Assembly (NCBI GenBank): GCA_020638065.1
Contig: JACKJG010000013.1
Location: 19,058-83,057, forward strand
Direction of reading: 5' to 3'
Length of the DNA: 64,000 nucleotides
Source: Hyphomicrobiaceae bacterium
GTDB taxonomy: Bacteria; Pseudomonadota; Alphaproteobacteria; Rhizobiales; Devosiaceae
The position numbers and the translations under genes are program-made. Each line of letters begins with the position of its first letter. Position 1 is the stretch's first letter. The notes under the pieces were generated by a model. It did no database searches. It had not been told where the DNA came from and worked only from the letters and a program-made list of their open reading frames with translations. Below, piece after piece: positions 22,442 through 59,376 of this stretch.

Positions 22442-22457
22442 GAAGTCCTGTCAGGTC

Positions 22458-23609: not shown

Positions 23610-23706
23610 TCAACTCGTCCGGTCCGCCCGGAAGGGGCGTGAAAGATTGGTCGAATGTAGACCGGCAACTCTTACTATTTCGCAACCATAATTGCGCCGG
23701 GCGAAA

Positions 23707-24795: not shown

Positions 24796-24851
24796 TCACT
24801 CACTACTCCGCGCCGCGCCCGAAGGGCTGGCTGTCCCCTTGCCGGAATGAC

Positions 24852-26249: not shown

Positions 26250-26263
26250 TCGCGCCCAGTCGC

Positions 26264-27706: not shown

Positions 27707-27721
27707 CGTGTTTTCCCGGCC

Positions 27722-31846: not shown

Positions 31847-31849
31847 CTG

Positions 31850-31878
31850 AAATAAGGTTTGCCGCACCAAAAGGTCAA
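31850..31878 (-). promoter_or_regulatory. Putative sigma-70 promoter of rnpB
   Basis: On the minus strand the sequence is TTGACC, a 17-nt spacer, then TTATTT. The -10 ends about 4-7 nt before the predicted 5' end of the P1 helix. Confidence 0.5.
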
Positions 31879-31892
31879 GAAGATGCGAAGCG

Positions 31893-32582: not shown

Positions 32583-32675
32583 GCGTCCCAACCGTCAGAA
32601 TTCGGGCAAATCACCCCGTTTCCGTTCAGTTTAGGCGATTGCCATCCCGCTTCAAGCGCTGATCTCGACCGCGCG

Positions 32676-33488
32676 TCATCGGCCCACGTTGCGCAGCGGG
32701 ATGGGGTGCGGCCGGGGGCCGTTTTCTACCTCAATCCAACTGACAAGATACGGAAGAACCGGCTGAGACCCGGATGCGACCGTCGTCTCGAGGTTGTTGC
32801 GCGCATTGACCTGATCAAGCCGCCGCGGCCAGCTGCCGTCGGCAAAATCACTGACCAGCGGATCGAGCGAGACAGAACGCGCCGCAACAATGGTCGCATC
32901 AACCGGCACCGGAACGGGCACCAGCCTCGGGCGGTTCTCCCGTGGCATCGGGATGGGCGGCGTCAGATCGATCGGGCCATCGCCTTCGTCAAAGTGAATG
33001 ACAGTGACCGGCTTCATATCGATCAGCGCGACTTCGACCTCGTCTGGCGACGGCGCAGCATCAATCGGGGCCGGAGCAGCCGGCACCGCCTCCGCCTCTG
33101 GCTCGGGCGGCACCTGGGGAGACGCTGGCTCTGAATTGGCAACGTTGAGACCAGCAACATTCGAGGCGAAATCGATCACGCGAACCGGGTTTTTCGGCAC
33201 GACCTGGCTGGAAACGCCCGGACTTTGAGAATTCGCGTCGTCAGGCATCGGGAACGCGCCGTCCGCGCCAGCAGACCCATTGTCGGATGCAACCGCGAAT
33301 TGCCCTTCCCCCGCAACCGGCATCGGACCGTAGACTTGCGCAGCGTCCGCGCCAGACGTTTGGTCTGCGCCTGACTGCAAAAGGGGTGGTGGTGCGGCCC
33401 AGTCTGCAACCGCGATGCCATGTGCAAGGCCAAGTGAAACAGCCGCCAGCGCGGCTCCCGCTGCGAGCGGGCGCACAAAGGATGCCAT
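32676..33488 (-). CDS. Secreted hypothetical protein, Pro/Ala-rich
   Basis: Start MASFVRPLAAGAALAAVSLGLAHGIAVA is a Sec signal with an AxA-like site, and GGGAG lies upstream. The low-complexity P/A/E-rich middle gives no recognised domain. Confidence 0.55.
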   Translation of the reverse strand: MASFVRPLAAGAALAAVSLGLAHGIAVADWAAPPPLLQSGADQTSGADAAQVYGPMPVAGEGQFAVASDNGSAGADGAFPMPDDANSQSPGVSSQVVPKNPVRVIDFASNVAGLNVANSEPASPQVPPEPEAEAVPAAPAPIDAAPSPDEVEVALIDMKPVTVIHFDEGDGPIDLTPPIPMPRENRPRLVPVPVPVDATIVAARSVSLDPLVSDFADGSWPRRLDQVNARNNLETTVASGSQPVLPYLVSWIEVENGPRPHPIPLRNVGR

Positions 33489-33569
33489 AATCTGCTCCCC
33501 GTCTGAGGCGCCCCCGCCACGGTCAAAATGCAAACCGCATAAAGCGGCGAGATTATGGTTAACGCAGGC

Positions 33570-34433
33570 TTAATGCCCCAGAAGCCGCGCCAGGGCGATA
33601 ACCAGTTCCGATCGATTCATGGTGAAGAAGTGGAAGGCCGTCACACCACCCTCCAGCAACTCCGTCACCTGTTGGGCCGCCGTGGCCGCTGCCAGCATGC
33701 CGTGCAGATCGGTCCCCGCTTCCACCCCTTCGAAACGGCGCGTCAATTCGCCGGGAATGCGTGCCTTGCACTTGGCCGCAAAACGGCTGACTTGCACAAA
33801 ATTGTGGATCGGCTGGATGCCCGGGACGATAGGCACCGAAATCCCCGCCTTGGTGCATCGGTCCAGGAACCGCCAATAGTCGGCATTGTCGAAAAACATC
33901 TGCGTGATCGCCCGGTTGGCCCCGGCATCCACTTTGCGCTTGAGATTGTCGATATCGAATTGCCAGTCCCGGCTTTCGGGGTGCTTTTCCGGATAGGCGG
34001 CAACCGAAATGTCGAAATCGCCGATCTTGCGGATACCCGCCACCAGGTCGGCGCCATCGCGATAACCATCAGGCCGGGTCTCGAACCTCTCGCCGATACC
34101 AGCGGGCGGATCTCCGCGCAGCGCGACGATGTGATTGATCCCCGCAGCCTGATAGCCGCGGACCACCTCATCGACTTCGTCGCGCGAAGCGCCCACGCAG
34201 GTCAGGTGCGCCGCGGCCTCCAATCCGGTGCGTTTCTTCACTTCGGACACCATACGTGTGGTGCGTTCGCGGTCCGACCCGCCAGCCCCATAGGTCACCG
34301 ACACCATGCTTGGTTTGAGCGGCGCCAAGGCTTCGAGACTTTGCCAGAACTTCTCTTCCGCCGCCTCGGTCTTGGGTGGAAAGAACTCGAATGACATGGT
34401 GACGCCGCGCGCCCGTTTGGCCTCAAATGTCAT
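33570..34433 (-). CDS. metF: 5,10-methylenetetrahydrofolate reductase
   Basis: SFEFFPPKT, SVTYGAGGS, HLTCVG and LRGDPP motifs are present. ATG 34433 is preceded by GGAGAG and overlaps the upstream regulator gene by 11 nt. Confidence 0.9.
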   Translation of the reverse strand: MTFEAKRARGVTMSFEFFPPKTEAAEEKFWQSLEALAPLKPSMVSVTYGAGGSDRERTTRMVSEVKKRTGLEAAAHLTCVGASRDEVDEVVRGYQAAGINHIVALRGDPPAGIGERFETRPDGYRDGADLVAGIRKIGDFDISVAAYPEKHPESRDWQFDIDNLKRKVDAGANRAITQMFFDNADYWRFLDRCTKAGISVPIVPGIQPIHNFVQVSRFAAKCKARIPGELTRRFEGVEAGTDLHGMLAAATAAQQVTELLEGGVTAFHFFTMNRSELVIALARLLGH

Positions 34434-35403
34434 CGCTATTTCTCTCCAGTTTGGCTTTTTCGAGCGTCCAGACACAGACCGTTAGTGCCTTGTCTCCTGC
34501 CCCTTTGGACGGCGGCAGGATAAGGCAGGATGAAACCTGCAGCCCCGCCCCGCTTGCCCAGATATTCATCTGATCTTCCGAAAGCCCCAATCGCCGATGC
34601 GCCTGTTCGGCACGCAGAAATTCCAGCTCGTGCGGCGCGAAATCGACCACGACAACCCGGCCGTTGGACCGAAGCAGTTCCGCCGCCCGCTCCAGCACCG
34701 CGCGCGGATGGTCGAAATAGTGAAGAACCTGATGAATTGTGATCAGGTCGGCCGCCTCACCCTCGAGATCGAGGCAGGTCACGTCACCATGCCGCACATG
34801 CGTCTGGGAAAGTCCGGCCTCGTTGATCCGCGCCCGCGCCACGGCCAGCATGTCTCTGCTGCTGTCAACGCCGATCCCGCGCACATAATGAGCGGCCAGA
34901 AGCTCGAGCATTCGGCCTGTGCCGGTCCCAAGATCCACCATCAGATCGTATTTGCGCTCGCCGACTGCCTTGAGAATTGCCGCCTCGACAGTTTCTTCGG
35001 AAACGTGAATCTTGCGCAACGCGTCCCAACTCTCGGCCACATCGGCAAAAAACGAATTGGCCCGCGCTCTTTGCTGGTCACGCAGTTTTTTCAGGGCTTC
35101 ATGATCCGCGCGCAACACTTCGTCATTGCTTCCCACAAGTTCAACCGCATATCTGGCCAGCCCACCCTTGCCGCCGATGTCTGCGAGCCGGAAATAGGCC
35201 CATGCCCCTTCCGAATGCCGTTCCACCAAACCGGCATCCGCCAACAGTTTCAGGTGCCGCGAAATACGCGGTTGGCTCTGGCCCAGAATGTCGGTGAGGT
35301 CCTTGACGGTCAGCTCCCCGGCGGACAAAAGTGCGAGCAGGCGCAGCCGCGTCGGCTCACCCGCCGCCTTCAGGGCATCCACACTTTGCTGCAATCCGGC
35401 CAT
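34423..35403 (-). CDS. sahR: ArsR-family HTH fused to SAM-methyltransferase-like domain (SahR-type regulator of methionine/SAM-cycle genes)
   Basis: The N-terminal ArsR wHTH is ALKAAGEPTRLRLLALLSAGELTVKDLTDILGQSQPRISRHLKLLADAGLV. The C-terminal class I MTase fold is VDLGTGTGRMLELLA. The fused architecture and position directly upstream of metF match the SahR regulators described in Proteobacteria. The symbol is given on that basis only. Confidence 0.72.
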   Translation of the reverse strand: MAGLQQSVDALKAAGEPTRLRLLALLSAGELTVKDLTDILGQSQPRISRHLKLLADAGLVERHSEGAWAYFRLADIGGKGGLARYAVELVGSNDEVLRADHEALKKLRDQQRARANSFFADVAESWDALRKIHVSEETVEAAILKAVGERKYDLMVDLGTGTGRMLELLAAHYVRGIGVDSSRDMLAVARARINEAGLSQTHVRHGDVTCLDLEGEAADLITIHQVLHYFDHPRAVLERAAELLRSNGRVVVVDFAPHELEFLRAEQAHRRLGLSEDQMNIWASGAGLQVSSCLILPPSKGAGDKALTVCVWTLEKAKLERNSDDI

Positions 35404-35414
35404 CCGCTCCTCGA

Positions 35415-35436
35415 GATATAAAGATATCTTTATATC
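35415..35436. promoter_or_regulatory. 22-bp perfect palindrome, candidate SahR/ArsR operator
   Basis: GATATAAAGAT|ATCTTTATATC lies 12 nt upstream of the sahR-like start codon, in the divergent sahR/uxaC intergenic region. It is the only AT-rich element there. Confidence 0.5.
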
Positions 35437-35558
35437 CTATCCAACCCGGCTGTCGAGTCGCGGTTGGCGTGTCAGCTTTTCGTCTGGTTGACCTTTACTC
35501 GTGGCTCAGGCTGGTGTCTGAACAGTGCCGGAACGCATTGACTGGATCTGAAACCGAT

Positions 35559-36965
35559 ATGAGCTTGCATCCCGATCGCTTTTTTAGCGGCGACGCCCAA
35601 TCCCGATCGGCCGCCCGCGAGATTTACGAATCCATCTCCGGTCTGCCGATTATTTCGCCTCACGGCCACACCGATCCAGAGTGGTTTGCCAGCAATCAGC
35701 CATTTTCGGATGCGGCCTCGCTATTCCTGACGCCCGACCATTACGTGTTGCGTATGCTGTTTTCGCAAGGATTGTCCTACGAAGACCTTGGAGTTCCGCG
35801 AAAAGATGGCACAGCGGTTGCCGACGGCCGCAGCGCGTGGCGAAGGTTCGCGGCCAATTATCACCTCTTCCTTGGCACGCCCTCGCGCACCTGGATCGAC
35901 CATTCTCTGCAATGGGCGTTCGGAATCTCCGAAACCCTCAGCACGGAAACCGCCGATCGAATCTTCGATCAGATCAACGAACGCCTGACCGAACCCGATT
36001 TTCTGCCGCGTGCCATTCTGGAAAAGGCCAAGGTCGAAACCATCGCGACCACCGAATTCGCCCTCGACCCGCTTCAGCATCATCAAAGTCTGAAACAACA
36101 AGGTTTGATCGGCCTTGTCCGGACCACTTACAGACCGGACGATGTCACCGATCCGGACAATCCCGGCTTTCTCGCCAACCTGGCGACGCTGGCCGAGACA
36201 ACCAATGAGGACACGCGGAACTGGCCGGGATTGATCGATGCTCACCGCAAGCGCCGTGCCCTCTTCCGCGAATTCGGTGCCACCGCCACCGACCATGCCG
36301 CACCAACGGCGCTGACCGCCGATCTGCCCGAACATGAAAAGCAGGCGCTACTCGACCGGCTCCATTGCGGCACCATTTCGCCGGAAGATGCCGAACTGTT
36401 TCGCGCGCAGATGCTCACCGAAATGGCCATGCTATCCGTCGAAGACGGGATGGTCATGCAGTTTCACGCCGGTTCGCGCCGCAATACAGATCCCGTCCTG
36501 ATGGCCCAACGCGGCCCCAATCTGGGTGCGGACATTCCGGTTCCCGTCGATCCGGTGCGCGGTCTCGAACCCTTGCTGCAAAAATTCGGCCGCTCGCCGG
36601 ACTTTCATATGATTTTCTTCTGCCTCGACGAGAGTGTGCTGGCCCGCGAACTTGCGCCGATGGCCGGCTATTGGCCCGCCCTGAAACTCGGACCGCCCTG
36701 GTGGTTCCACGACAGTCCGCGCGGTATCGCACGTTACCTTGATCGCGTCGTCGAAACCGCGGGCTTCTTCAATCTGGCAGGTTTCAACGACGACACCCGC
36801 GCCCTGCTCTCCATCCCTGCCCGGCACGATGTCTGGCGGAGATGTGTCGCCGACTTTCTCGCGCAGATGGTCACCGCAAACACTCTTGGAAAACCGGACG
36901 CCCTGCAGATTGCCGCCTGGCTGAGCTACGAGTCCGCCAAGGTTGCCTACAATATCCCGGCTTGA
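35559..36965 (+). CDS. uxaC: Glucuronate (uronate) isomerase
   Basis: The 468-aa product has SPHGHTDP (metal-binding HxH), DHYVLRML and the C-terminal GPPWWFHDS..FNDDTRALLSIPARHDVWRR. These parallel E. coli UxaC (DHYKWRAM, WWFND, TDSRSFLSY.RHEYFRR). Confidence 0.85.
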   Translation: MSLHPDRFFSGDAQSRSAAREIYESISGLPIISPHGHTDPEWFASNQPFSDAASLFLTPDHYVLRMLFSQGLSYEDLGVPRKDGTAVADGRSAWRRFAANYHLFLGTPSRTWIDHSLQWAFGISETLSTETADRIFDQINERLTEPDFLPRAILEKAKVETIATTEFALDPLQHHQSLKQQGLIGLVRTTYRPDDVTDPDNPGFLANLATLAETTNEDTRNWPGLIDAHRKRRALFREFGATATDHAAPTALTADLPEHEKQALLDRLHCGTISPEDAELFRAQMLTEMAMLSVEDGMVMQFHAGSRRNTDPVLMAQRGPNLGADIPVPVDPVRGLEPLLQKFGRSPDFHMIFFCLDESVLARELAPMAGYWPALKLGPPWWFHDSPRGIARYLDRVVETAGFFNLAGFNDDTRALLSIPARHDVWRRCVADFLAQMVTANTLGKPDALQIAAWLSYESAKVAYNIPA

Positions 36966-36970
36966 ATCAG

Positions 36971-36996
36971 AAAGGGTGGCCCTTGGACCACCCTTT
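36971..36996. terminator. Hairpin between convergent uxaC and the 37022-38155 gene (possible bidirectional terminator)
   Basis: AAAGGGTGG-N8-CCACCCTTT forms a 9-bp stem 6 nt after the uxaC stop. T/A runs are weak. Confidence 0.4.
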
Positions 36997-37021
36997 CAGC
37001 GCGACCTTTTTCAAGATGGCG

Positions 37022-38155
37022 TCAAGACGCCAAAAGCTCGGTCAATTCAGGAGTGATATTGTGCTTGCGGAACGCATGTGCGCGCCAGGACTCGAACGAA
37101 CGCTCGGCCTCACCCGGGTCGAGCCGGTCAAAACGCACCAAAGCGGTGTCGATGGCCGACTGTTCCGGCGTCTCGCGCCAGGGCAGAATGCGTAGTGTCC
37201 GCTCGAACATGTCCGGTGCCATGCCCATGGACCGGCAGGCAATGGTCATCGCCCGATAGTCCTGAGTTGCCAGCCACTTCACGAAGACTTCCTGCTTCAA
37301 ACCCAGCATCAGGGTGATGGCAGCACCCAGATGGTGGCCGTAGGCAAACTTGGCGAACCGTTCCAGCGCCCGGTCATCAAGCTGCCGGCGATCGGACAAT
37401 GCCTTGATCTGGTTCCAGGCAATGCTCCACTCATGGGCCGAAAAACCCGCCCGTGCATGCAGCCGGTTGAATGCGATCGTGCTCGCCTTTTCCATGGTCT
37501 GCGGATCGGCTGCCCGGGAAATGGTCTGGAGTTGACCCAGAACCTTTTGGCCAGCATCGCTGACACGGTTTGCAAGGGCAGACCAGTCCACCTTGCGGCG
37601 GCTGAGTTTTTGCGTGATTTCCGCGCTTTCCGCAGCCTTTTCAACCAGATCGCTCAGCGTATCATTTGTTAGCTGCGCAGTTTCGTTTTCGACCAGCCGG
37701 CCAATGGACGCGTCCTGGCCGTGATCGACGATGGCGTGCCCGACCCGATCGCTGACATCCTGCCGGCCGGCAATGATGACGCGATGGTCTTCGCTCTGCC
37801 CGGCCACGATTTCGATCAGATCGTCATCGCTCAGGACATTCGAGAATTCGAGCAACGGCCTGGCCACTTCGACCTCGTCATTGGCCAGTTTGATGACAAC
37901 CGTGCCCGGCGCCCGCTGTAGCGGCGCCAACAACTTGGCGACCTCGCCGCGGGCCTCGGCCTCGACGAGTTCGGCCAACTGGCACAAGACTTCGTCATAT
38001 TGTTCGACCTGATCGTCATCGCAACGATCGGACACGAACGTGAACAATTGCGCCATGTTGCGGAACAGTTGATCGCGTTCCGTGGCACCGGCATCACTGT
38101 CGAGCGCGCGAAAACTCGTGAATGCCCGCGCTGTCGTTTCAGTATTTTCCAACAT
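37022..38155 (-). CDS. Conserved hypothetical all-helical protein (possibly DUF2336 family)
   Basis: The 377-aa ORF has host-like codon usage and starts at MLENTETT. Repeated helical segments are present and there is no TM segment or signal peptide. The DUF2336 assignment is from memory and unverified. Confidence 0.5.
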   Translation of the reverse strand: MLENTETTARAFTSFRALDSDAGATERDQLFRNMAQLFTFVSDRCDDDQVEQYDEVLCQLAELVEAEARGEVAKLLAPLQRAPGTVVIKLANDEVEVARPLLEFSNVLSDDDLIEIVAGQSEDHRVIIAGRQDVSDRVGHAIVDHGQDASIGRLVENETAQLTNDTLSDLVEKAAESAEITQKLSRRKVDWSALANRVSDAGQKVLGQLQTISRAADPQTMEKASTIAFNRLHARAGFSAHEWSIAWNQIKALSDRRQLDDRALERFAKFAYGHHLGAAITLMLGLKQEVFVKWLATQDYRAMTIACRSMGMAPDMFERTLRILPWRETPEQSAIDTALVRFDRLDPGEAERSFESWRAHAFRKHNITPELTELLAS

Positions 38156-38348
38156 ACTTCCCTCCCGAGGGGTTCTCCGTGCTGTGCCACACAATGCCCG
38201 AAACCCTTGGACGAGACTTGAAACGCAAAAAGCAAGATTGAATAAAGTTTTATCAATCCGGCATTGGCCGAAATGCGGTTGACATTGCCGGTCAGCGCCC
38301 CCAACGTTGAAATCCTTTACAAAATGCTAACGCCACGGGGACGCGACG

Positions 38349-40154
38349 ATGGCGACATTTCTCGTAATCAACACCGACGATTCCGGGTCTGGCAGCCTTC
38401 GCGACGCGATCGACGCGGCAAACGCCAATCCGGATGCGGACAAGATCGAGTTCGCGCCGTGGCTGAGTGGCAGTGAAATCAATCTGCAATCGACGCTGAC
38501 CATTTCGTCGGGGACGCTGACCATCAACGGCGATATCGACGGTGACGGCAGCCCAGACATTACCATTTCAGGTGATCAGGACGATAATGGCGCCGATACA
38601 GGCGACCTTAGAAACCTGTTGACCGTCACTGCTCAGTCCGAAGTCACTCTCAACGCCCTGCATTTCACCGGAGCATATTTTGCGAGCTATCAGCAAGGTC
38701 TTGAAGCCGCGGTTGGCATACATAATGCCGGAATACTGACGATCAAAGATTCAATTTTATCGGACATGATCGCCGTCGGCGCTCATGGGTCAAGCATCAA
38801 CAGTGACTATGTTAGTGGTCACGACGGCACGGCGGGGATCGTCAATTTCGGAACCCTCACGATCTCCGACACAATGTTCGACGAGATGCGTGCTTCCGGC
38901 GGCGATGGAAATGTCTATGCTAACCTCGTCTATGGACATGGTGGGCGCGCGACCGCCGGGATCCGCAACAACGGCACCGTTTATGCAAGCGGCATCGGTA
39001 TCAGTAACGCATACGTTCGGGACGGCGGCGGCACTGTATCAGGTATTGGAGGCGATGCGATCGCCGGCATCCAAACGACCGGCCTGTTTTCAACTGCCAA
39101 CGTTACCGGCCCGGTTGCGGTTTACAACAATACCTTTGGTTATGGCAGTGGCAGCAATGGCGACCATCTTGAGGGCGGCATCTACGGTTCCGGGATCGTC
39201 GCACTTGCGATGCCGTCCATGTCGAACGGCGGTCAGTTGGCCTATGTCGGCTTCATGGGGACCTACTTTGGATTCGGCGGCAATGACCTCATCAACAATG
39301 GTCCGCCAGACGGCTACGGCAAACTTTACGGCCAGGGCGGCAACGATACGATCATCACCTATGGCTACGGCGCAAGGGCCTATGGCGGGTCCGGCAATGA
39401 CATAATTCGCAATGTGGGCATGCTCGCCTCGACAATGGATGGCGGCTCAGGGGTTGACCTGTTCGACCTTGCCGGAAACTTCTCCGGCTTGAATTTCACC
39501 CTCAATATGGCCACTGGCGTCAGCAACATCGGCACCGTCCGCAATTTTGAAAATGTCCTTGGCGAAAACAATGCGAGCCGAAGCGACAATATTCGCGGCA
39601 CCGACGGCGCCAACGTGATTGCCGGCCGTGATGGAGACGACATTCTCAAGGGACTGGGCGGCAACGACCAGATTCTGGGTGGCAAAGGCGACGACGATAT
39701 TCGTGGTGGTGATGCCAATGACATCCTGCGCGGCGGTAACAACACCGATACGCTGAGAGGCGACAACGGCAGCGACATTGTGCATGGCGGCTCCGGAGCC
39801 GACTTCCTGTTTGGCGGCAACGCCAACGACAGGTTGCGAGGTGGCGACGGCAGCGACGAATTGCAGGGCGACAAAGGCAACGACGTGCTGCGCGGCGGCG
39901 GCGGCAAGGACACCTTCATTTTCGGCAAGGGGTTCGACAAGGATTCTGTCCGCGACTTTACCGACAATACCGATCAGATCGCTCTCAACGACAATCTGTG
40001 GAAGGGCACATTGTCCAAGACCCAGATTCTGAACCAGTTCGCAACGCTCAAGGGCAATGGCGACGTCGTCTTCGATTTCGGCAACGGCGACATATTCACG
40101 ATCAAGGACGCCGGCAGTGTCGCGATCTTCAAGAACGACATGGTCATCGTGTAG
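38349..40154 (+). CDS. P1: beta-helix (Pmp-like Gly-rich repeat) / RTX calcium-binding protein, probable T1SS substrate
   Basis: The N-terminus MATFLVINTDDSGSGSLRDAI has no signal peptide. INGDIDGDGSPDITISGD follows, then AGIxNxGxL units. About 12 GGxGxDxUx nonapeptides are present (GGNDQILGGKGDDDIRGGDANDILRGGNNTDTL..). The tail is DTFIFGKGFDKDSVRDF..KNDMVIV. Confidence 0.88.
   Translation: MATFLVINTDDSGSGSLRDAIDAANANPDADKIEFAPWLSGSEINLQSTLTISSGTLTINGDIDGDGSPDITISGDQDDNGADTGDLRNLLTVTAQSEVTLNALHFTGAYFASYQQGLEAAVGIHNAGILTIKDSILSDMIAVGAHGSSINSDYVSGHDGTAGIVNFGTLTISDTMFDEMRASGGDGNVYANLVYGHGGRATAGIRNNGTVYASGIGISNAYVRDGGGTVSGIGGDAIAGIQTTGLFSTANVTGPVAVYNNTFGYGSGSNGDHLEGGIYGSGIVALAMPSMSNGGQLAYVGFMGTYFGFGGNDLINNGPPDGYGKLYGQGGNDTIITYGYGARAYGGSGNDIIRNVGMLASTMDGGSGVDLFDLAGNFSGLNFTLNMATGVSNIGTVRNFENVLGENNASRSDNIRGTDGANVIAGRDGDDILKGLGGNDQILGGKGDDDIRGGDANDILRGGNNTDTLRGDNGSDIVHGGSGADFLFGGNANDRLRGGDGSDELQGDKGNDVLRGGGGKDTFIFGKGFDKDSVRDFTDNTDQIALNDNLWKGTLSKTQILNQFATLKGNGDVVFDFGNGDIFTIKDAGSVAIFKNDMVIV
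39636..40154 (+). repeat. Near-identical ~520-bp 3' cassette, copy 1 (RTX block + C-terminal tail of P1)
   Basis: By-eye nucleotide alignment with 41504-42022 and 45242-45760 shows only scattered substitutions (for example GGCAAC/GGCCAC and AAAGGC/AGAGGC). Confidence 0.85.
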
Positions 40155-40171
40155 GACAGGAACCGGGACGC

Positions 40172-42022
40172 ATGACAACCTTTCTTGTCATCAACAACAA
40201 TGATAGCGGCTCCGGCAGCCTTCGTCAGGCAATCCTGAACGCGGAAGAAAGCTCCAGCCCGGGCAAGGACGTCATCGAATTCGCCTCGTGGATGAGCGGC
40301 CAAACCATCCAACTGCAATCAACCCTGCAAATCCAGACCGGCAAATTGTCGATGAATTTCGACCTCGACGGCGATGGTCTTGGCGACATCACCCTGTCCG
40401 GCGACAACGGAACGCAGGGATTTTACAAAGACGCCAGCGATATCGGTCTTCTGATTCAGGTTGGCGCATCCGCGAACGTGTCCATCAGCTCCCTTAATGC
40501 GGTCGGCGGAGGTGAAAACGCAACTCAGGGCGACCGAGCAATCGCCGGGATCCAAAACTACGGCATTCTGACGCTCACCGACTCCTACATGAGCCACCTC
40601 AAGGCCTATGGCGGAACAAATTACTATTCCGGCGGCAACGCGATCTCTGGCATACATAACCAAGGGACGCTGTACGTCTCGAACACCCAATTCAATGAAC
40701 TGCGCGCCCAGGGTGGGGCCGGCACCGCCCTGAACCTGAGTAGCTACACCTACGGTTATAATGGCGGGACCGCTGCGGTCGGCATTTTCAATAGCGGGAC
40801 GGGCGGCGTTGTCGTTGAACAATTCAACGTCAGCAATGCGCGGCTGTTTGGCGGAGACGGCGCAGGCGGGTCCGCACGCAACGGCGCCGGCGGCGACACA
40901 TATCTTGGTGTGACCACGTTCGCCGGTTCTGTGGCGGGCGATCTTGGCTGGCAAGCCGCACAAAACTATTCCGGCGACAGCGGCGCCGGCGGCGCGGCGC
41001 TTCAGCCGCCAAGCGTTGAGCACGAAAACCGTGGCACCAGCGGACTTGTTGCCCGAGCGCAACCCGAATTCGGAACCATGCTTGGCGATGGAATGTACTC
41101 GTACGGTGCGGGTGGCGTGTTGATCGGGCTCGCAGGTCGCGACCGATTGAACGATTTTGGCGGCGGCGGTTTCCTGTATGGTGGTGGCGGGAACGACTAC
41201 ATCTTGACCAAAGGGGCCAATGGCAAGGCCTATGGCGGCGCGGGAAACGATGTCATCAAGAACACATCCCTGCTGGCCATCACCATGAATGGCGGAGACG
41301 GGACCGACCTGCTTGATGTCTCACAAGACATCTGGAATTTCGAGTTCAACATGGTGACAGGTGTTGCGAAAACTGTCAGCCCGTCCAATTCGGCAAAATT
41401 CTTTGATAGTTCTGCCCTTAATTTCGAAAATGTGAACGGCACAAACCAGATCGACAAAATCACCGGCACAAACGGCGCCAACATCATCATCGGTAACGAC
41501 GGCGACGACATTCTCAAGGGACTGGGCGGCAACGACCAGATTCTGGGGGGCAAAGGCGACGACGATATTCGTGGTGGTGATGCCAATGACATCCTGCGCG
41601 GCGGTAACAACACCGATACGCTGAGAGGCGACAACGGCAGCGACATCGTGCACGGCGGCTCCGGAGCAGACTTCCTGTTTGGCGGCAACGCCAACGACAG
41701 GTTGCGAGGTGGCGACGGCAGCGACGAATTGCAGGGCGACAGAGGCAACGACGTGCTGCGCGGCGGCGGCGGCAAGGACACCTTCATTTTCGGCAAGGGG
41801 TTCGACAAGGACTCTGTCCGCGACTTTACCGACAATACCGATCAGATCGCTCTCAATGACAATCTGTGGAAGGGCACATTGTCCAAGACCCAGATTCTGA
41901 ACCAGTTCGCCACGCTCAAGGGCAATGGCGACGTCGTCTTCGATTTCGGCCACGGAGACATATTCACGATCAAGGACGCCGGCAGTGTCGCGATCTTCAA
42001 GAACGACATGGTGATTATCTAA
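40172..42022 (+). CDS. P2: beta-helix / RTX calcium-binding protein paralog
   Basis: Start MTTFLVINNNDSGSGSLRQAILNAEESS lies 17 nt after the P1 stop. It has the same architecture. The track ORF start at 39998 lies inside P1 and is rejected. Confidence 0.88.
   Translation: MTTFLVINNNDSGSGSLRQAILNAEESSSPGKDVIEFASWMSGQTIQLQSTLQIQTGKLSMNFDLDGDGLGDITLSGDNGTQGFYKDASDIGLLIQVGASANVSISSLNAVGGGENATQGDRAIAGIQNYGILTLTDSYMSHLKAYGGTNYYSGGNAISGIHNQGTLYVSNTQFNELRAQGGAGTALNLSSYTYGYNGGTAAVGIFNSGTGGVVVEQFNVSNARLFGGDGAGGSARNGAGGDTYLGVTTFAGSVAGDLGWQAAQNYSGDSGAGGAALQPPSVEHENRGTSGLVARAQPEFGTMLGDGMYSYGAGGVLIGLAGRDRLNDFGGGGFLYGGGGNDYILTKGANGKAYGGAGNDVIKNTSLLAITMNGGDGTDLLDVSQDIWNFEFNMVTGVAKTVSPSNSAKFFDSSALNFENVNGTNQIDKITGTNGANIIIGNDGDDILKGLGGNDQILGGKGDDDIRGGDANDILRGGNNTDTLRGDNGSDIVHGGSGADFLFGGNANDRLRGGDGSDELQGDRGNDVLRGGGGKDTFIFGKGFDKDSVRDFTDNTDQIALNDNLWKGTLSKTQILNQFATLKGNGDVVFDFGHGDIFTIKDAGSVAIFKNDMVII
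41504..42022 (+). repeat. Near-identical ~520-bp 3' cassette, copy 2 (P2)
   Basis: See copy 1. The encoded 172 aa differ from P1 at only a few positions (K/R, N/H, terminal VIV/VII). Confidence 0.85.
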
Positions 42023-42040
42023 AAGCGGAGACCCGGACAG

Positions 42041-43822
42041 ATGGCTACATTTCTCGTCATAAATACCAACGATTCAGGCGCTGGCAGTCTACGCGATGCT
42101 ATCGAGGCGGCGGCCGCCGACCCGGATGCGGACACGATCAAGTTCGCCTCCTGGCTGAGCGGCGAAACGATTTTCCTCCAGGATACACTGACCATCGAAT
42201 CCGGGACGGTGACCATCAACGGAGACATTAATGGTGATGGAGATCCGGATGTCATCATCTCTGGCGATGCGGGAGACGATGGCAAGTCTCTTGACGACGT
42301 TGGCATTCTGCTCCAGGTCCGGTCCGGAGCAAATGCCACGATCCAGTCCATGCATTTCACCGAGGCCTACGCGAAGGGGGCGAACGGATCAGGCTATTCT
42401 GGCGGCGGCACGGCCATCGCGGGTATTTCCAACCAGGGCGATCTCAGATTCTTCGATTCCGTGCTCCAGAATGCGCAAGCTTTCGGCGGCGATGGCGCAT
42501 CATCAACAATCTACGCACGCCATGGCGGCGATGGCTTCGCCGGCATCTACAATAGTGGCACGGCCTATATCCGAGATTCGCTTCTCACCACTGTATTTGC
42601 CTATGGTGGAGACGGCGCCGATGGGACTTTGGGAGGGGACGGTGGAAACGCAACCGCCGGCTTCTGGAATTTCGGCACGTTGAGGACCATCAATGCCGGC
42701 ATGAGTAGTTTCGGTGCATTCGCTGGCGCTGGCGGAGACTCCAGCACATCGGCTGACGGCGGCGACGGTGGCAACTCAAGACTGGGAATTCTGAATTACG
42801 GATCCTACCTGCCCCTGGGCCCTTCTGTGCATTCGGCCGGAGGTGCAAGTTTTGGGTTAGGGGGAACGTCCAACGGGGGTCAGAGCGGCGCCAATGGCAC
42901 CTTTCTGGAAAACTTCGCGGCATTGCAGGCAACATATACATCTGGGTTTTCCCAATTCGGCGATGTCATAACCGTCCCCATTGCACAAACTTTCATGGGC
43001 TTGGCGGGCGCCGATAGAATCGACAATTCTGGAGGCAGCGGAAAGCTCTATGGCGGCAGCGGCAACGATTACATCCTGACCAATGGCGCCAATGTTAAGG
43101 TCCAGGGCGGCTTGGGCGATGATTTCGTAAGAAATACCGGCATCGGCAATTCCACCATGATGTACGGGGGAAAAGGCAACGACACGCTTCAGCTCGACAA
43201 TGTCGGCCGCAATTTCACGCTGAACCTTTTGTCGGGCAATGCGATCAACAACAGCAACATTTACGGTTTTGAAAACATCATTGGCGACGACGACGCCAAT
43301 TTTACCGACCGCATCACCGGCGACAATAGCCGCAACATCCTCATCGGACGCAAGGGTGCCGACATCCTGAAGGGCATGAACGGCGACGATCAGCTATTTG
43401 GCGGCGACCAGGACGACAAGCTCTTCGGCGGCAACGATGATGATCACCTGTTCGGCGGGAACAACAACGACTCGCTGCAGGGCAACGACGGCAACGATCT
43501 GCTGTTCGGCGAAAACGGCAAGGACCTTCTGGACGGCGGCAGGAACGACGATCAGCTGGTTGGCGGCGGCAACAACGATCAGTTCAAGTTCGGCAAAGGC
43601 TACGACCGCGACGTGGTCATGGATTTCCAGGACAATATCGACACACTGGTCATCAACGACAATCTTTGGAAAGGCACGTTGTCCAGGAACCAGGTCCTCA
43701 TTCAATTCGCCACGCTCAAGAATAATGGTGACGTTGTCCTGAATTTCGGCAATGGCGACATTTTCAAGATCAAGGATGTCGGCAGCGTCGATGCTCTCAA
43801 GAACGACATGACAATCGTCTAG
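42041..43822 (+). CDS. P3: beta-helix / RTX calcium-binding protein paralog
   Basis: MATFLVINTNDSGAGSLRDAI, INGDINGDGDPDVIISGD and four AGIxNxG / GGDGG units are present, followed by an RTX block. The tail DQFKFGKGYDRDVVMDF..KNDMTIV is diverged from the cassette copies. Start is 18 nt after the P2 stop. Confidence 0.88.
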   Translation: MATFLVINTNDSGAGSLRDAIEAAAADPDADTIKFASWLSGETIFLQDTLTIESGTVTINGDINGDGDPDVIISGDAGDDGKSLDDVGILLQVRSGANATIQSMHFTEAYAKGANGSGYSGGGTAIAGISNQGDLRFFDSVLQNAQAFGGDGASSTIYARHGGDGFAGIYNSGTAYIRDSLLTTVFAYGGDGADGTLGGDGGNATAGFWNFGTLRTINAGMSSFGAFAGAGGDSSTSADGGDGGNSRLGILNYGSYLPLGPSVHSAGGASFGLGGTSNGGQSGANGTFLENFAALQATYTSGFSQFGDVITVPIAQTFMGLAGADRIDNSGGSGKLYGGSGNDYILTNGANVKVQGGLGDDFVRNTGIGNSTMMYGGKGNDTLQLDNVGRNFTLNLLSGNAINNSNIYGFENIIGDDDANFTDRITGDNSRNILIGRKGADILKGMNGDDQLFGGDQDDKLFGGNDDDHLFGGNNNDSLQGNDGNDLLFGENGKDLLDGGRNDDQLVGGGNNDQFKFGKGYDRDVVMDFQDNIDTLVINDNLWKGTLSRNQVLIQFATLKNNGDVVLNFGNGDIFKIKDVGSVDALKNDMTIV

Positions 43823-43840
43823 GGCAGGAGTGAAACTCCG

Positions 43841-45760
43841 ATGACTACTTTTCTTGTCATCAACAACAATGACAGCGGCTCCGGCAGCCTTCGTCAGGCA
43901 ATCCTGAACGCCGAAGAAAGCTCAAACCCGGGCGCCGATACGATCGAGTTTGCCCCGTGGATGACCGGCCAGACGATATTTCTTTCGGAAACGCTGACCA
44001 TCCAGTCGGGAAACCTGACAATCAATGGCGACATCAACGGCGATGGTGATCCTGACATCACAATTTCTGGTGATAGCGGGGACGATGGCCGATCTCCCGA
44101 CGATGTGGGCACACTGCTTCTTGTCGACTTCAATGCAACCGCCCGGATTAATTCTCTGATATTGGCCGACGGAACCTATTACGGAGCCAATACAGGCGGC
44201 ACCTATGGCCCGGGTTACATAACTCCGGTTGCGCGATCCGGTCTTGCAGGCATTGAAAATCGGGGAACTCTAACCCTGACCGACAATGTCATCACCAATA
44301 TGTATTCCAAGGGCGGCAACGGCGATAGCAGCTACGGCATTTACGGCCTCGCGGGGGGACAGGGGACGGCCGGCATTTTGAATTCGGGTCAGTTGACGAT
44401 CACTGACACAGCGCTGGAAGGCCTTACGGCCAAAGGCGGGAACGGTGCAAATGGCTATGGCGCCTACGATGGCGGCGATGGTGGACGCGCGCAGGTCGGC
44501 ATTCTGAATGGCTTCGGCAACATCAGCCTGCGAAACGTTGGCTTCAACAACATTAACGCGCTCGGTGGACAGGGTGGAGCGGGAGACGGCGCGGCGCGCA
44601 CGGGCGGCAATGGCGGAGAAGCGACTGCGGGAATTTGGATTTACAACGGAACCTATGTCAGCGTCGGCTATTCCGCACTGGGCGCGTTTACCGCAAATCC
44701 GGGCTCGGGCGGGTCTGGCCTGGGGGGCGCAGACCCCGGAGTCCCGGGCTATTACTATGCGCCTGTCCGAAGCGCGCCGGGAATTCTGACCGATTACGAT
44801 TCTGGGTTCACCCAGTCAGATGACACCCGCCCCACCACCGGACCGGGCCAGCGCATGTTCGGTTTTGCAGGAGACGATGTGCTGACCGACGGCTTTGGAG
44901 GCGGCAAGCTCTACGGCGGTAGCGGCGATGATTTTCTTTCGTCATATGGTGCAAACGTCATTGCCTATGGCGGGTCCGGGAACGACAGGATCAAAAACCT
45001 GTCACTGAACGCCAACACGATCATGGACGGCGGCAAAGGCAATGATCTGCTCGATGTGTCGGCGGATTCCTGGAGCTTCAAGCTCAACATGACCACCGGC
45101 AGCGCAAAAACAATCGATCCCAACAATCCAACCAACCTGTATGCGCTCACCGCCCGCAATTTCGAGAACGTCATCGGCACGAACCACGTGGACAACATCA
45201 CCGGCACCAATGGCGCCAATACCATCGCCGGCAATGACGGCGACGACAATCTCAAGGGGCTGGGCGGCAACGACCAGATTCTGGGTGGCAAAGGCGACGA
45301 CGATATTCGTGGTGGTGATGCCAACGACATCCTGCGCGGCGGCAACAACATTGATACACTGAGAGGCGACAACGGCAACGACATCGTGCATGGCGGCTCC
45401 GGAGCCGACTTCCTGTTTGGCGGCAACGCCAACGACAGGTTGCGCGGCGGTGACGGCAGCGACGAATTGCAGGGCGACAGAGGCAACGACGTGCTGCGCG
45501 GCGGCGGCGGCAAGGACACCTTCATTTTCGGCAAGGGGTTCGACAAGGATTCTGTCCGCGACTTTACCGACAATACCGATCAGATCGCTCTCAATGACAA
45601 TCTGTGGAAGGGCACATTGTCCAAGACCCAGATTCTGAACCAGTTCGCTACGCTCAAGGGCAATGGCGACGTCGTCTTCGATTTCGGCCACGGCGACATA
45701 TTCACGATCAAGGACGCCGGCAGTGTCGCGATCTTCAAGAACGACATGGTGATTATCTAG
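43841..45760 (+). CDS. P4: beta-helix / RTX calcium-binding protein paralog
   Basis: The MTTFLVINNNDSGSGSLRQAILNAEESS start is nearly identical in DNA to the P2 5' end. The central region is different, and the 3' cassette is identical in type to P1/P2. Start is 18 nt after the P3 stop. Confidence 0.88.
   Translation: MTTFLVINNNDSGSGSLRQAILNAEESSNPGADTIEFAPWMTGQTIFLSETLTIQSGNLTINGDINGDGDPDITISGDSGDDGRSPDDVGTLLLVDFNATARINSLILADGTYYGANTGGTYGPGYITPVARSGLAGIENRGTLTLTDNVITNMYSKGGNGDSSYGIYGLAGGQGTAGILNSGQLTITDTALEGLTAKGGNGANGYGAYDGGDGGRAQVGILNGFGNISLRNVGFNNINALGGQGGAGDGAARTGGNGGEATAGIWIYNGTYVSVGYSALGAFTANPGSGGSGLGGADPGVPGYYYAPVRSAPGILTDYDSGFTQSDDTRPTTGPGQRMFGFAGDDVLTDGFGGGKLYGGSGDDFLSSYGANVIAYGGSGNDRIKNLSLNANTIMDGGKGNDLLDVSADSWSFKLNMTTGSAKTIDPNNPTNLYALTARNFENVIGTNHVDNITGTNGANTIAGNDGDDNLKGLGGNDQILGGKGDDDIRGGDANDILRGGNNIDTLRGDNGNDIVHGGSGADFLFGGNANDRLRGGDGSDELQGDRGNDVLRGGGGKDTFIFGKGFDKDSVRDFTDNTDQIALNDNLWKGTLSKTQILNQFATLKGNGDVVFDFGHGDIFTIKDAGSVAIFKNDMVII
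45242..45760 (+). repeat. Near-identical ~520-bp 3' cassette, copy 3 (P4)
   Basis: See copy 1. Confidence 0.85.
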
Positions 45761-45958
45761 ACGGCAACGCGTTCAGTCTCAGCCTCGCCACAGCCTCTGA
45801 ACGAAGCCGGACCGTCCGCTGGACGGTGCCGCAATCGGCATTTTCCCCGTTTTATCTAGCCCGTCTCAGACCTTTGGCGCTCCAACTTGGGACCATCGGT
45901 CAATTGCCCGACAGACCTGATCCATTTGACAATTTGGCTCCGGCTTCAGGAGATCAAT

Positions 45959-47728
45959 ATGGCCACTTTTGTCGTTACAAACACCAATGACCAGGGCTCT
46001 GGCAGCTTGCGCGATGCCCTCGCGAAGGCCGAGCAGCACACAGGCACCGATACGATCGTCTTCAATTCCAACCTCGCTGGCCAGACGATATTCCTCGCTT
46101 CGACGTTGCAGATCAAAAGCGGAAACGTCATCATCAGTGGTGACACCAACGGCGACGGCGACGCCGATATCACGATTTCCGGCGACACGACGAACAATGG
46201 CCAGGGAGCCACGGATGTCGGCACGCTGCTTTCAATAGCAGGCCAGGCAACTGCCAGTATTGCCAGCTTCGTGTTCACGGACGGATATTCGCAAGGTTTG
46301 GCGTCGAACCAGGCCGGCGTTGCCGGCGAACGGGGAATGGCTGGCATCGTCAATAAGGGCCAGCTGTCCCTTTCAGACTCCATTGTCACCAACATGGTCG
46401 CCAAGGGCGGCACTGGCGGCGGCGATGCCGTCGATACCGATGATGGTGCCGACGCCTTTGCCGGGATCGACAATACGGGCACCCTGTCGATCTCCAACTC
46501 CTACATCGGCCAGAATAGCGCCTCCTCCGCAGACGCAAACAATGCGCTCAACAATGCCGGCGCCGGTGGGCTGGCGGTGGCGGGCATCCGAAACAAGGGC
46601 CAACTGGAAGCCGACGGCGTTCTGTTCACGGGAAACGTCGCTCTCGGAGGCGCTGGCGGACAAAGCATCAACCAGACCGGCGGCGACGGTGGCGCTGCCG
46701 GAGCAGGCATTTGGCAGGATGCGGGCTTTACGAGCGGCTATATCGGTCATGAAGCCGGCACGGCCACCGGCGGTGCTTACGGCCCGGGGAATCCCGGGCC
46801 GGGCGAGAATGGAAAGAGCTATGCGGGATTTCATGCCGAAGCTCCAAGCACGTCCAGTGTGGTCGTTTCGAATGAGGCCGTTTCAGATCATTTTGGCGGC
46901 ACGGGTATCGACCTGATCAACATCGCCGCAGGACAAAACGTTTTCGCCCTTCATGGCAACGACACCATCGACAACAGGGGACTTGATGTTGCCGGCATCA
47001 TTGTCCACGCCGGCAGCGGTAACGACAGGATCTATACCGGCACGCTCGACAGCTCGTTCGGTGACACCGGCAACGACAGGATTTTTGCTCAGGGCGACGC
47101 GACGGTGAACGCAGGCCTCGGGAATGATAAGGTCACGGTAACTGCGTTCACACCGGCCAGTTCGATGAAGGCGACCGGCAGCGCGGGCAATGACACCCTG
47201 GATTTCAGCGCAATCACGGGGCAGAATTTCAAACTTGATATGCAGACGGGACTGACCTCCGGCGCCGCAACATTTGCCAGGTTCGAGCGATTCATCGGAA
47301 TCGATGACGCGGGCTTCACCGACCGTATCAACGGAACCTCCGGCAAGAACAGCATAGATGGAATGGCCGGAGACGATATTCTGAGGGGGCAAGCCGGCAA
47401 CGACACGTTGCGAGGCGGCGCAGGCAGAGATTTTCTCGATGGGGGGACTCAAAATGACAAACTGCTTGGCGGTGCCGACAGCGACACGTTCAAATTCTCC
47501 AAGAAATACGGAATCGACGTGATCCTGGATTTTGCTGACGATGTCGACACCATCCTTCTCAACGACCGGCTCTGGAAAGGAACCATGACCAAGGCGCAGG
47601 TGCTTAGGCAATTCGCGACCCTTAACGACAATGGCAACGTCAAATTCGATTTCGGCAACGGCGACAAGCTCATCATCAAAGACGTTGGCAGCATCGACGT
47701 TTTAAAGAACGACCTCGTCATCATCTAG
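45959..47728 (+). CDS. P5: beta-helix / RTX calcium-binding protein paralog (most divergent of the + array)
   Basis: MATFVVTNTNDQGSGSLRDAL is preceded by AGGAG after a 198-nt gap. ISGDTNGDGDADITISGD, AGIxNxGxL units and a shorter RTX block are present. The tail is DTFKFSKKYGIDVILDF..KNDLVII. Confidence 0.87.
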   Translation: MATFVVTNTNDQGSGSLRDALAKAEQHTGTDTIVFNSNLAGQTIFLASTLQIKSGNVIISGDTNGDGDADITISGDTTNNGQGATDVGTLLSIAGQATASIASFVFTDGYSQGLASNQAGVAGERGMAGIVNKGQLSLSDSIVTNMVAKGGTGGGDAVDTDDGADAFAGIDNTGTLSISNSYIGQNSASSADANNALNNAGAGGLAVAGIRNKGQLEADGVLFTGNVALGGAGGQSINQTGGDGGAAGAGIWQDAGFTSGYIGHEAGTATGGAYGPGNPGPGENGKSYAGFHAEAPSTSSVVVSNEAVSDHFGGTGIDLINIAAGQNVFALHGNDTIDNRGLDVAGIIVHAGSGNDRIYTGTLDSSFGDTGNDRIFAQGDATVNAGLGNDKVTVTAFTPASSMKATGSAGNDTLDFSAITGQNFKLDMQTGLTSGAATFARFERFIGIDDAGFTDRINGTSGKNSIDGMAGDDILRGQAGNDTLRGGAGRDFLDGGTQNDKLLGGADSDTFKFSKKYGIDVILDFADDVDTILLNDRLWKGTMTKAQVLRQFATLNDNGNVKFDFGNGDKLIIKDVGSIDVLKNDLVII

Positions 47729-47733
47729 ACGGC

Positions 47734-47768
47734 AAAAAAACCCCGGCATGTTACCATGCCGGGGTTTT
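47734..47768. terminator. Bidirectional rho-independent terminator between P5 and katG
   Basis: AAAAAAA-CCCCGGCATG-TTAC-CATGCCGGGG-TTTT forms a perfect 10-bp stem flanked by an A-run and a T-run. It lies 6 nt after the P5 stop and 40 nt after the katG stop. Confidence 0.85.
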
Positions 47769-47807
47769 CATTTGCCGGTGGCCGGCATCGGGCTCGAAAC
47801 AGTGCGT

Positions 47808-50084
<2,277 letters not shown>

Positions 50085-51005: not shown

Positions 51006-51811
51006 CCCAAGCGCGCGACAACCAGATGGCCCGGCGTCGGCCGACCGTCCTGCATGCGCACATTGATATCGTCCATCGCGACAATCTCGAACCCGGCATC
51101 GGCCAGGCACGCCTGCACGTAGTCCGCCGCGTGCACAAAGCGCTGATGCGGCGCGACCCTGAATGGCCGCCCGCCCATGTCCCCCAGCGTCTCCGAGGAA
51201 AAGACCAACAATCCACCCGGAACGAGATTGTCCGCCGCGCCCTCAAATAGCGGATCGAGCTCTCCGAGATATGGCAACACGTCACAGGCCGTGATCAGGT
51301 CGAACTGTTCCTCGTCATTGTCGGCGAGAAATTCCTCGACCTCCCCGCAATAGAGGCCCTCATAGATATCCTTGTCTTCGCAGATATCGATCATGCGCGA
51401 GCTGATATCGATGCCGATCATGTCCGTCACGCGGTCGCGCAGGGCCTCGGCGGCAAGCCCGGTCCCACAGCCAAGATCCAGAACGCGCTCGAACGGCCCC
51501 AGACCAAGCGCATCAAGCTTCTTTCGCACGAGATTGGGCACGTCATAGCCCAACTGTTCGACCAGAATGTCTTCGAACGCGTCTGCATGCTGGTCGAACA
51601 GAACCTCGACATAGGAATCGGGCGCCTTGGCCGGCACCGCGCCGCGTTCGAGCGCTGCAAGGCGCACCGCTGCACCACCATGATCCTGCGGATCGAGCTC
51701 CAGATAGGCTTTGAGCGCGGCCACCGCGCCTTCGATGTCGCCCGACTCTTCCAGCTCGAGCGCAAGGTTGTACGCGTCGGCAACGGCCGGCTCATCGAGC
51801 TTGCGGCCCAT
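51002..51811 (-). CDS. Class I SAM-dependent methyltransferase with N-terminal TPR-like segment
   Basis: SAM motif I VLDLGCGTGLAAEAL is present, plus the post-I acidic residue IGIDIS and motif II-like FDLITACDVLPY. Confidence 0.75.
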   Translation of the reverse strand: MGRKLDEPAVADAYNLALELEESGDIEGAVAALKAYLELDPQDHGGAAVRLAALERGAVPAKAPDSYVEVLFDQHADAFEDILVEQLGYDVPNLVRKKLDALGLGPFERVLDLGCGTGLAAEALRDRVTDMIGIDISSRMIDICEDKDIYEGLYCGEVEEFLADNDEEQFDLITACDVLPYLGELDPLFEGAADNLVPGGLLVFSSETLGDMGGRPFRVAPHQRFVHAADYVQACLADAGFEIVAMDDINVRMQDGRPTPGHLVVARLG

Positions 51812-55371: not shown

Positions 55372-55429
55372 CTGACTCTCCATGATCCTTGGGAGGGTAA
55401 CCAAAGCAATGCATGTCACAAAAATCGCC

Positions 55430-59262: not shown

Positions 59263-59376
59263 CAATCTGGTGTTCCGTGGACCCTACGTGAAGGTCCCTC
59301 GCCTGTCAGCACCCAAACACCCCGACGGCTGCGTGATTGCCGGTCGCCGGTAAAAACTTGCAGGCCGGCGGGCGGG

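Follow-up and report, generated by a model that had tools for sequence, protein, structure and literature searches.

Gene conversion as the probable source of three near-identical tail cassettes in a tandem array of RTX paralogs from an uncultured Hyphomicrobiaceae bacterium

The window considered here is a stretch of 64,000 nucleotides (contig JACKJG010000013.1, positions 19,058 to 83,057) of chromosomal DNA with 59 % G+C, which originates from a metagenome-assembled genome (MAG) of an uncultured Hyphomicrobiaceae bacterium. Between a DUF2336 gene and katG it contains five tandem paralogs, P1 to P5, all of which are located on the + strand. Their products share a common plan consisting of an N-terminal cap (MATFLVINxNDSGSGSLRxAI), a glycine-rich and divergent middle, a block of repeats-in-toxin (RTX) nonapeptide repeats and a conserved tail of about 80 amino acids (aa) ending in NDMVIV/II. 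The last part of P1, P2 and P4 is formed by a nearly identical cassette of 519 nt, and the origin of this likeness is the subject of the present report. The genes and the cassettes are the following:

38349-40154, + strand: P1, 601 aa; a mosaic of three parts, namely a P3-like N-terminus, a central module near-identical to the ortholog in the related genome L002, and the tail cassette
40172-42022, + strand: P2, 616 aa
42041-43822, + strand: P3, 593 aa; interleaved between P2 and P4
43841-45760, + strand: P4, 639 aa
45959-47728, + strand: P5, 589 aa; fifth paralog with a tail of its own, ortholog of Q3 in L002
39636-40154, + strand: cassette copy 1, tail of P1, RTX beta-roll and C-terminal tail, 172 aa
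41504-42022, + strand: cassette copy 2, tail of P2, 519 nt
45242-45760, + strand: cassette copy 3, tail of P4, 519 nt

All five paralogs are intact full-length open reading frames (ORFs), each having a start codon preceded by a purine-rich, GGA/GGAG-like motif. Homology places the start of P2 at the ATG at 40172 and not at the GTG further upstream at 39998. The intergenic gaps from P1 to P4 comprise 17-18 nt, and P5 is preceded by a spacer of 198 nt.

A preliminary description of the window had reported that the three segments align base for base, and had read the combination of homogenised ends and divergent middles as the product of gene conversion or cassette exchange. Computed alignments bear out the underlying pattern. 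Over 519 nt the cassettes align without indels, and the identity is 504/519 (97.1 %) for P1-P2, 499/519 (96.1 %) for P1-P4 and 501/519 (96.5 %) for P2-P4, with longest exact runs of 98-114 nt. The last 172 aa, which each segment encodes, consist of the regular block of RTX nonapeptides followed by the C-terminal tail. The central regions of P1, P2 and P4 are only distantly related (50-53 % identical overall), so that the cassettes lie well above the rest of the genes (96-97 % versus about 50 %). In a sliding window the identity is mostly 30-55 %, climbs before the cassette and reaches 93-100 % inside it. The tail of the interleaved P3 is clearly diverged, being 66-67 % identical to the cassette and 18 codons shorter, and the P5 tail is 66 % identical to it. 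A self-BLAST of the 64 kb window revealed no more copies of the cassette, not even partial ones.

The 5' edge of the tract is sharp, as the identity rises from about 60 % to more than 95 % within about 40-100 nt at 39600-39636. At the other end, the last 10 nt of P1 (40145-40154) contain four P1-private differences, or five against P2 if the stop codon is counted. The likeness between P2 and P4 runs about 280 nt further in the 5' direction (41228-42021 versus 44963-45759, 86 % over 797 nt), and additional conserved blocks are situated at the 5' ends of the genes:

44963-45241, + strand: P4 pre-cassette stretch, 63-88 % identical to 41228-41503 of P2
40172-40308, + strand: 5' homology block of P2, 86 % identical to 43841-43977 of P4 (93 % in the first 90 nt)
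38348-38471, + strand: 5' homology block of P1, 81 % identical to 42040-42163 of P3

The pre-cassette stretch of P4 may represent an older, decayed conversion tract or reflect common ancestry of P2 and P4. Within the three cassettes 26 sites are variable. All P4-private variants (11/11) are found in the 5' 40 % of the cassette, at the equivalents of 39643-39845, and the P1-private variants are mostly located towards the 3' end (39874-40151). This spatial sorting of the private variants points to at least two conversion tracts.

Further information comes from a related genome. In a scan of genome contigs, the Hyphomicrobiaceae MAG HK-STAS-PROT-32 (L002) was the sole other genome found with the array; a scan of metagenome contigs gave one distant RTX match (L004) and a plasmid collection a katG match only. 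The L002 array is syntenic with that of the window, being likewise located between DUF2336 and katG, and the flanking housekeeping genes are 70-86 % identical to those of the window, with a synonymous divergence (dS) of 0.68-1.62. It contains three genes, Q1, Q2 and Q3, which are orthologs of P1, P2 and P5, respectively, and no ortholog of either the P3 or the P4 middle. The tails of Q1, Q2 and Q3 are not homogenised but 60-65 % identical to one another (Q1-Q2 65 %), which suggests that the homogenisation of the cassette is recent and specific to the lineage of the window. The identity of the three cassette tails (P1, P2 and P4) to those of Q1 and Q2 is 63-71 %. The cassette shares 69-71 % with the Q2 tail, similar to the 67 % found between the middles of P2 and Q2, and this likeness at ortholog level indicates that it belongs to the P2 tail lineage. 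Furthermore, P2 looks vertically inherited throughout (77 % to Q2 in the N-terminus, 67 % in the middle and 70 % in the tail), and the cassette therefore probably originated in its lineage.

The relationships among the genes differ from segment to segment. By their N-termini P1 groups with P3 (82 %) and P2 with P4 and Q2 (77-87 %), the N-terminus of P4 being P2/Q2-like (84-87 %). In the middle the pairs are P1 and Q1 (92 %), P2 and Q2 (67 %) and P5 and Q3 (69 %), and P3 and P4 stand alone; apart from P4 itself, present as a partial record, the 5.8-billion-protein database contained no relative of the P4 middle. By their tails P1 groups with P2 and P4, and P3 with Q1, as Q1 combines a P1-type middle with a tail nearest to that of P3 (71 %). 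These incongruent groupings identify the genes as recombinant mosaics.

The synonymous sites of the cassette were compared with those of the other segments. Among P1, P2 and P4 the cassette has a dS of 0.096-0.131 and a non-synonymous divergence (dN) of 0.008-0.016. Its proportion of synonymous differences (pS) is 0.09-0.12, versus 0.53-0.62 for the same region in comparison with P3, P5, Q1 and Q2. Against the P3 tail the dS of the cassette region is 1.05-1.30; other tail comparisons gave at least 0.9, and the middles are saturated (dS at least 1.9). Fisher tests on the synonymous divergence of the cassette versus the other comparisons resulted in p values of about 1e-12 to about 1e-36, all of them 6e-12 or below and the lowest 4e-36. 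In a GENECONV-style permutation of the polymorphic sites, the concordant runs of P1-P2, P1-P4 and P2-P4 comprised 48-82 sites, and 0/2000 permutations produced runs as long (p <= 0.0005 for all three pairs). The cassette is under purifying selection (dN/dS about 0.1), but as its synonymous sites are also near-identical, selective constraint does not explain the similarity. Paralogs that resemble each other more than their orthologs, likeness extending to synonymous sites, and discrete boundaries between segments of incongruent relationship are, at the level of sequence, the features expected from gene conversion. Gene conversion among the tandem RTX paralogs in the lineage of the window is very probably the cause of the cassette likeness.

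The affected module corresponds to a structural unit of the proteins. RTX repeats were recognised in all five paralogs (Pfam PF00353, 49.6-80.3 bits with a cut-off of 23, E = 1e-13 to 1e-23), and tandem nonapeptide repeats of the GGxGxDxUx type mark P1 to P5 as predicted calcium-binding RTX proteins. In the AlphaFold2 model of P1 (mean predicted local distance difference test score, pLDDT, 75.5) the N-terminal half is parallel beta-helix-like, and the RTX beta-roll begins at residue ~413-430, which is the cassette boundary. The roll shows a regular strand period of 9 residues between residues 432 and 524 (pLDDT about 81-95). The best Foldseek matches of the model were RTX blocks of CyaA (E 9e-7), followed by weak matches to beta-helix enzymes acting on polysaccharides, namely the alginate epimerase/lyase 8jaz (E 4e-4) and the A-module of AlgE6, 5lw3 (E 1e-2). 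The passenger domain (residues 1-300) gave no significant match in Pfam, NCBIfam or PDB profile searches. Nevertheless, this N-terminal domain (P1-P8, e.g. 38349-39248) matches 2,036 representative proteins at E <= 1e-10 and as many as 17,600 if the limit is set at 1e-3; most of the matches checked are RTX-linked, and many start at residue 1 of RTX proteins. On this sequence evidence the passenger appears as a large family without a curated model. The CSLREA/choice-of-anchor Q N-terminal domain was rejected as an assignment, because TIGR04214 matched the GSLRDAIDAA helix with 12.3 bits (E 0.11), its cut-off being 25; among distant relatives of the passenger family, P0163 alone carries NF041518. 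The SMc04171 family of calcium-binding repeat proteins (NF046115) was also discarded, with at best 92.5 bits versus an equivalog cut-off of 625.

P1 to P5 begin directly with the MATFLV cap, and their tail, which ends in hydrophobic residues (NDMVIV/II), is shared with the lipase-like RTX protein at 61445-62848. None of the curated C-terminal tail models matched the tails of P1 to P5. P1 to P5, with tails of a type found in substrates of type I secretion, are probably secreted and are putative substrates of possibly a single type I system.

The passenger of P1 has a history of its own:

38496-39600, + strand: central beta-helix-like module of P1, 92 % identical overall to Q1 (about 10148-11255 of L002), dS 0.20

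In most 150-nt windows the identity of this module to Q1 is 92-98 %, with a dip to 85-87 % at 39144-39368. Outside it, P1 and Q1 are 68 % identical in the first 41 codons and 63 % in the tail. The breakpoints are located at ~38495 (about codon 50) and within 39601-39636; the latter is at most 35 nt away from the 5' edge of the cassette, where in structural terms the regular RTX roll begins. A dS of 0.20 in the middle versus 0.68-1.62 in the flanks points to a recent exchange of the passenger module alone between the two lineages, or to a third source for both. No third carrier of the P1 middle was found in the 5.8-billion-protein database. The cassette exchange proposed at the outset is partly right, but for the P1 middle, and the tails are instead attributed to conversion. 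Since the 3' breakpoint of the P1 module nearly coincides with the edge of the cassette, the conserved ends seem to act as recombination substrates within and between genomes.

According to the gene conversion model, non-reciprocal homologous recombination between misaligned paralogs, presumably of a RecA type, would have overwritten the equivalent part of P1 with the RTX-plus-tail module of the P2 lineage, and would also have taken place between P2 and P4. Conversion would have happened at least twice with differing tract ends. The 3' ends of the tracts would lie near the stop codon, where homology stops, and the 5' ends at the point at which the regular RTX block begins and the similarity of the paralogs drops. 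The conserved 5' ~135 nt would act likewise on a smaller scale, and N-terminus, passenger and tail would thereby acquire separate histories. The same conserved ends would have allowed the P1 passenger module to be swapped recently with a related species. A more general view, offered tentatively, is that the 5' cap and the RTX/secretion tail are portable homology arms for repeated passenger swaps among paralogs and co-occurring species. It is equally speculative that such modular swapping diversifies the type I secretome and keeps the export module uniform, the evidence being a single event, that of the P1 passenger.

Some observations weigh against conversion of the tails and are considered here together with the explanations that they would favour. 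P1, P2 and P4 might be recent duplicates that share their tail, and their middles might later have been swapped by means of the conserved ends. One such swap is essentially demonstrated, namely that of the P1 middle, which is 92-98 % identical to Q1 compared with 70-86 % in the flanks and whose 3' breakpoint abuts the cassette; in addition, the P3 and P4 middles are without L002 ortholog and the P4 middle is without any other database relative. However, P2 is apparently vertical throughout (77/67/70 % to Q2), and the N-terminus of P1 is P3-type and not P2/P4-type, so that a simple duplication would need extra exchanges. Three independent swaps of the middles are also less parsimonious than two or three conversions of the tails, and the sorted private variants within the cassette point to repeated short tracts. 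Passenger replacement is therefore considered unlikely; it involves the same homology blocks recombining as tail conversion does, and the two differ in direction, not in kind. Strong purifying selection on the RTX/secretion module without any recombination has practically no chance of being the explanation. It would suit the dN/dS of ~0.1 and the last ~80 aa, which are the most conserved part across all eight window paralogs, but it is refuted by the synonymous sites (pS 0.09-0.12 versus 0.53-0.62 for P3, P5, Q1 and Q2), and the L002 tails are just 60-65 % identical to one another.

The other points concern the assembly, since the preliminary description had also cautioned that the array might be collapsed or mis-assembled. 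A repeat that was collapsed, or an assembler path that was used again, would mean that the true copies are fewer or more different. The source is a MAG, and four other short-read assemblies break at cassette edges, the exact runs of 98-114 nt being near short-read length. The 100 % identity of window 31743-45713 to contig 70 (JAGRKP010000070.1) of the MAG GCA_020442265.1 ends inside the P4 cassette, where contig 70 stops at 45713 and contig 71 starts at 45727. An exact-sequence look-up of full-length P4 found no match, because the public MAG cuts P4 off inside the cassette. Logan contigs from SRR776449 and SRR12358675 both start at 45730 and terminate at 47843-47862, within the 3' end of katG. 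An ENA scaffold from an independent metagenome (L003) corresponds to window 39654-42021, beginning within the P1 cassette and stopping at the end of that of P2. Its mismatches to the window, nine in all, fall without exception in the cassettes, and each equals the base of the other paralog (P2-type in the P1 tail, P1-type in P2), the same hybrid variant path being present at both ends from 39779 on. These mismatches are due either to the path choice of an assembler or to genuine population variants produced by conversion. How the 26 variable sites are distributed over the copies, and hence the sub-tracts deduced from this, may partly reflect assembler choice. Nevertheless, an artefact is very improbable. 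The contig L001 reads from P1 through the cassette, P2, the cassette, P3 and P4 into the third cassette with 100 % identity to the window, and the junction of cassette and P5 is present in three further assemblies. The unique sequences that border the cassettes on either side differ from copy to copy, all frames are open and the cassettes differ at 26 sites. Moreover, true repeats make assemblies break, but assemblers do not create them. The warning was consequently pertinent with regard to breaks and phasing, but three copies with distinct flanks are well supported; the copy-specific variant pattern is less secure.

Two further reservations remain. The array is present in two genomes only, and donor and recipient are not rigorously polarisable on this basis. 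Genes for a type I secretion ATP-binding cassette (ABC) protein, membrane fusion protein (MFP) or TolC-like protein were absent from the 30 flanking ORFs scanned with Pfam, which cover most of the 64 kb apart from a few ORFs (about 29.4-33.1 kb, and 63079-63993); the cognate genes may be located elsewhere in the genome.

The direct repeats might also lead to loss or gain of whole genes by unequal recombination, as had been proposed, which is plausible rather than demonstrated. L002 lacks exactly the 3738-bp unit that reaches from a point in the P2 cassette to the corresponding point in that of P4 (P3 and the body of P4), and the region downstream of Q2 is colinear with that of P4. This would fit a deletion by unequal crossover or the reverse insertion, at a divergence too great for a demonstration. 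A diversity-generating or hypermutation origin of the middles was rejected, as they differ by indels and saturated synonymous change and not by targeted substitutions.

The array is embedded in the following surroundings:

12975-29428, - strand: complete dcw cluster with PBP3, murE, murF, mraY, ftsW, murG, murC, murB, ddl, ftsQ, ftsA, ftsZ and lpxC
31462-31841, - strand: bacterial RNase P class A RNA (Rfam RF00010, 302.7 bits)
47741-47772, no strand assigned: G+C-rich hairpin, CCCCGGCATG-TTAC-CATGCCGGGG, bordered by runs of A and of T and located between P5 and katG, which converge
53476-55419, - strand: further paralog of the same cap/beta-helix/RTX/tail family
56312-58309, - strand: further paralog of the same family
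59377-61269, - strand: further paralog of the same family
61445-62848, - strand: lipase-like RTX protein with a C-terminal tail of the same type as P1 to P5

Upstream of the array are the dcw cell-division and cell-wall cluster, ligA, recN, the RNase P RNA, metF, uxaC and the DUF2336 gene; downstream follow katG and a divergent LysR regulator. The complete dcw cluster nearby indicates that the array is part of a core chromosomal region and not of a mobile element. The hairpin is likely to be a bidirectional terminator closing the array, to judge from its base composition and position. A promoter and terminator scan of 37900-48200 gave counts no different from shuffle expectation, and an Rfam scan detected the RNase P RNA only, with no match in or near the array. 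The cassette is absent from the three minus-strand paralogs and the lipase-like RTX protein, whose tails are 50-61 % identical. Amid the minus-strand paralogs there are a NoeE-like sulfotransferase (58414-59265, - strand; weak NCBIfam match, 29 bits) and a LuxR/GerE-type regulator (55474-56241, + strand), which may be connected with modifying polysaccharides or regulating the family. A third lineage (L008, GCA_964498695.1 contig CAZCJD010000122.1) has a family member of 632 aa, P0005, beside EamA and MOSC genes; this locus is syntenic with the paralog 53476-55419 of the window together with its neighbours (51811-53353). Within the minus-strand ORF 63079-63993 a weak direct repeat (63349-63730, 81-nt offset, 64 % over ~300 nt) was noted.

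The locus is a clean and quantifiable case of module-level concerted evolution in putative type I substrates of an uncultured, wastewater-type alphaproteobacterium. Recombination would keep the export module, i.e. RTX beta-roll and tail, uniform, possibly with a selective benefit, and the passengers stay highly divergent; one passenger appears to have moved between species. For practical work it is important that 519-bp repeats of 96-97 % identity break short-read assemblies and make paralog-specific phasing unreliable, so that copy number and chimeras need long reads.

No directly comparable case emerged from a literature search restricted to gene conversion between paralogs that encode RTX proteins or type I substrates, and related systems are compared instead. 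The sapA homologs of Campylobacter fetus, whose products are type I substrates, and flagellin-type genes have conserved ends that act as recombination substrates around a variable core. In C. fetus, the programmed antigenic variation of the sap system additionally depends on a promoter that can be inverted and on conserved 5' regions. None of the features of sap-type programmed variation was seen in the P1-P5 array, and a programmed cassette system of the pilE/pilS, sap or msp2 type was rejected, as the 64 kb contain no silent, truncated or partial copies and all genes are full-length ORFs.

The paralogs babA, babB and babC of Helicobacter pylori possess N-terminal homology, a divergent middle and C-terminal homology of more than 90 %, and intragenomic gene conversion among them yields chimeras (PMC4552749). 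P1 to P5 have the same anatomy and conversion-type mosaics. However, the bab genes lie at dispersed loci and encode outer-membrane adhesins, they show phase variation by CT repeats and their chimeras have been observed directly in isolates, whereas P1 to P5 are tandem, code for putative type I secretion substrates and show no phase-variation repeat. The frpA/frpC-like RTX proteins of Neisseria meningitidis, exported by type I secretion, form a polymorphic family with large identical portions and unrelated N-termini, the latter ascribed to inserted foreign DNA (PMC3034196). P1 to P5 are likewise RTX proteins with shared identical portions, but Frp proteins are much larger, vary in RTX block number and carry other passengers, and no likeness in sequence beyond the RTX repeats was found. 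The mannuronan C-5-epimerases AlgE1-7 of Azotobacter vinelandii are secreted, calcium-dependent products of clustered paralogs with a right-handed beta-helix A-module and RTX R-modules (PMC7385640). Clustering and the predicted beta-helix plus RTX architecture are shared with P1 to P5. An identity as AlgE-type epimerases is not supported, since residues 1-300 gave no Pfam or NCBIfam match, nothing relevant in the PDB profile search and a Foldseek template modelling (TM) score < 0.2, the fold class alone being shared.

The tuf genes are reportedly an example of concerted evolution of duplicated bacterial genes. Unlike such tuf-type cases, which affect whole core-function genes over long periods, the event described here concerns a single module, is recent and belongs to one lineage. 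It agrees with the general definition of concerted evolution in Bacteria, in which paralogs within a genome become more alike than orthologs through gene conversion (PMC6053082). The array thus represents real but ordinary gene conversion between paralogs without a new mechanism, following the same logic that is documented for H. pylori bab, meningococcal frp and other families of surface or secreted proteins.

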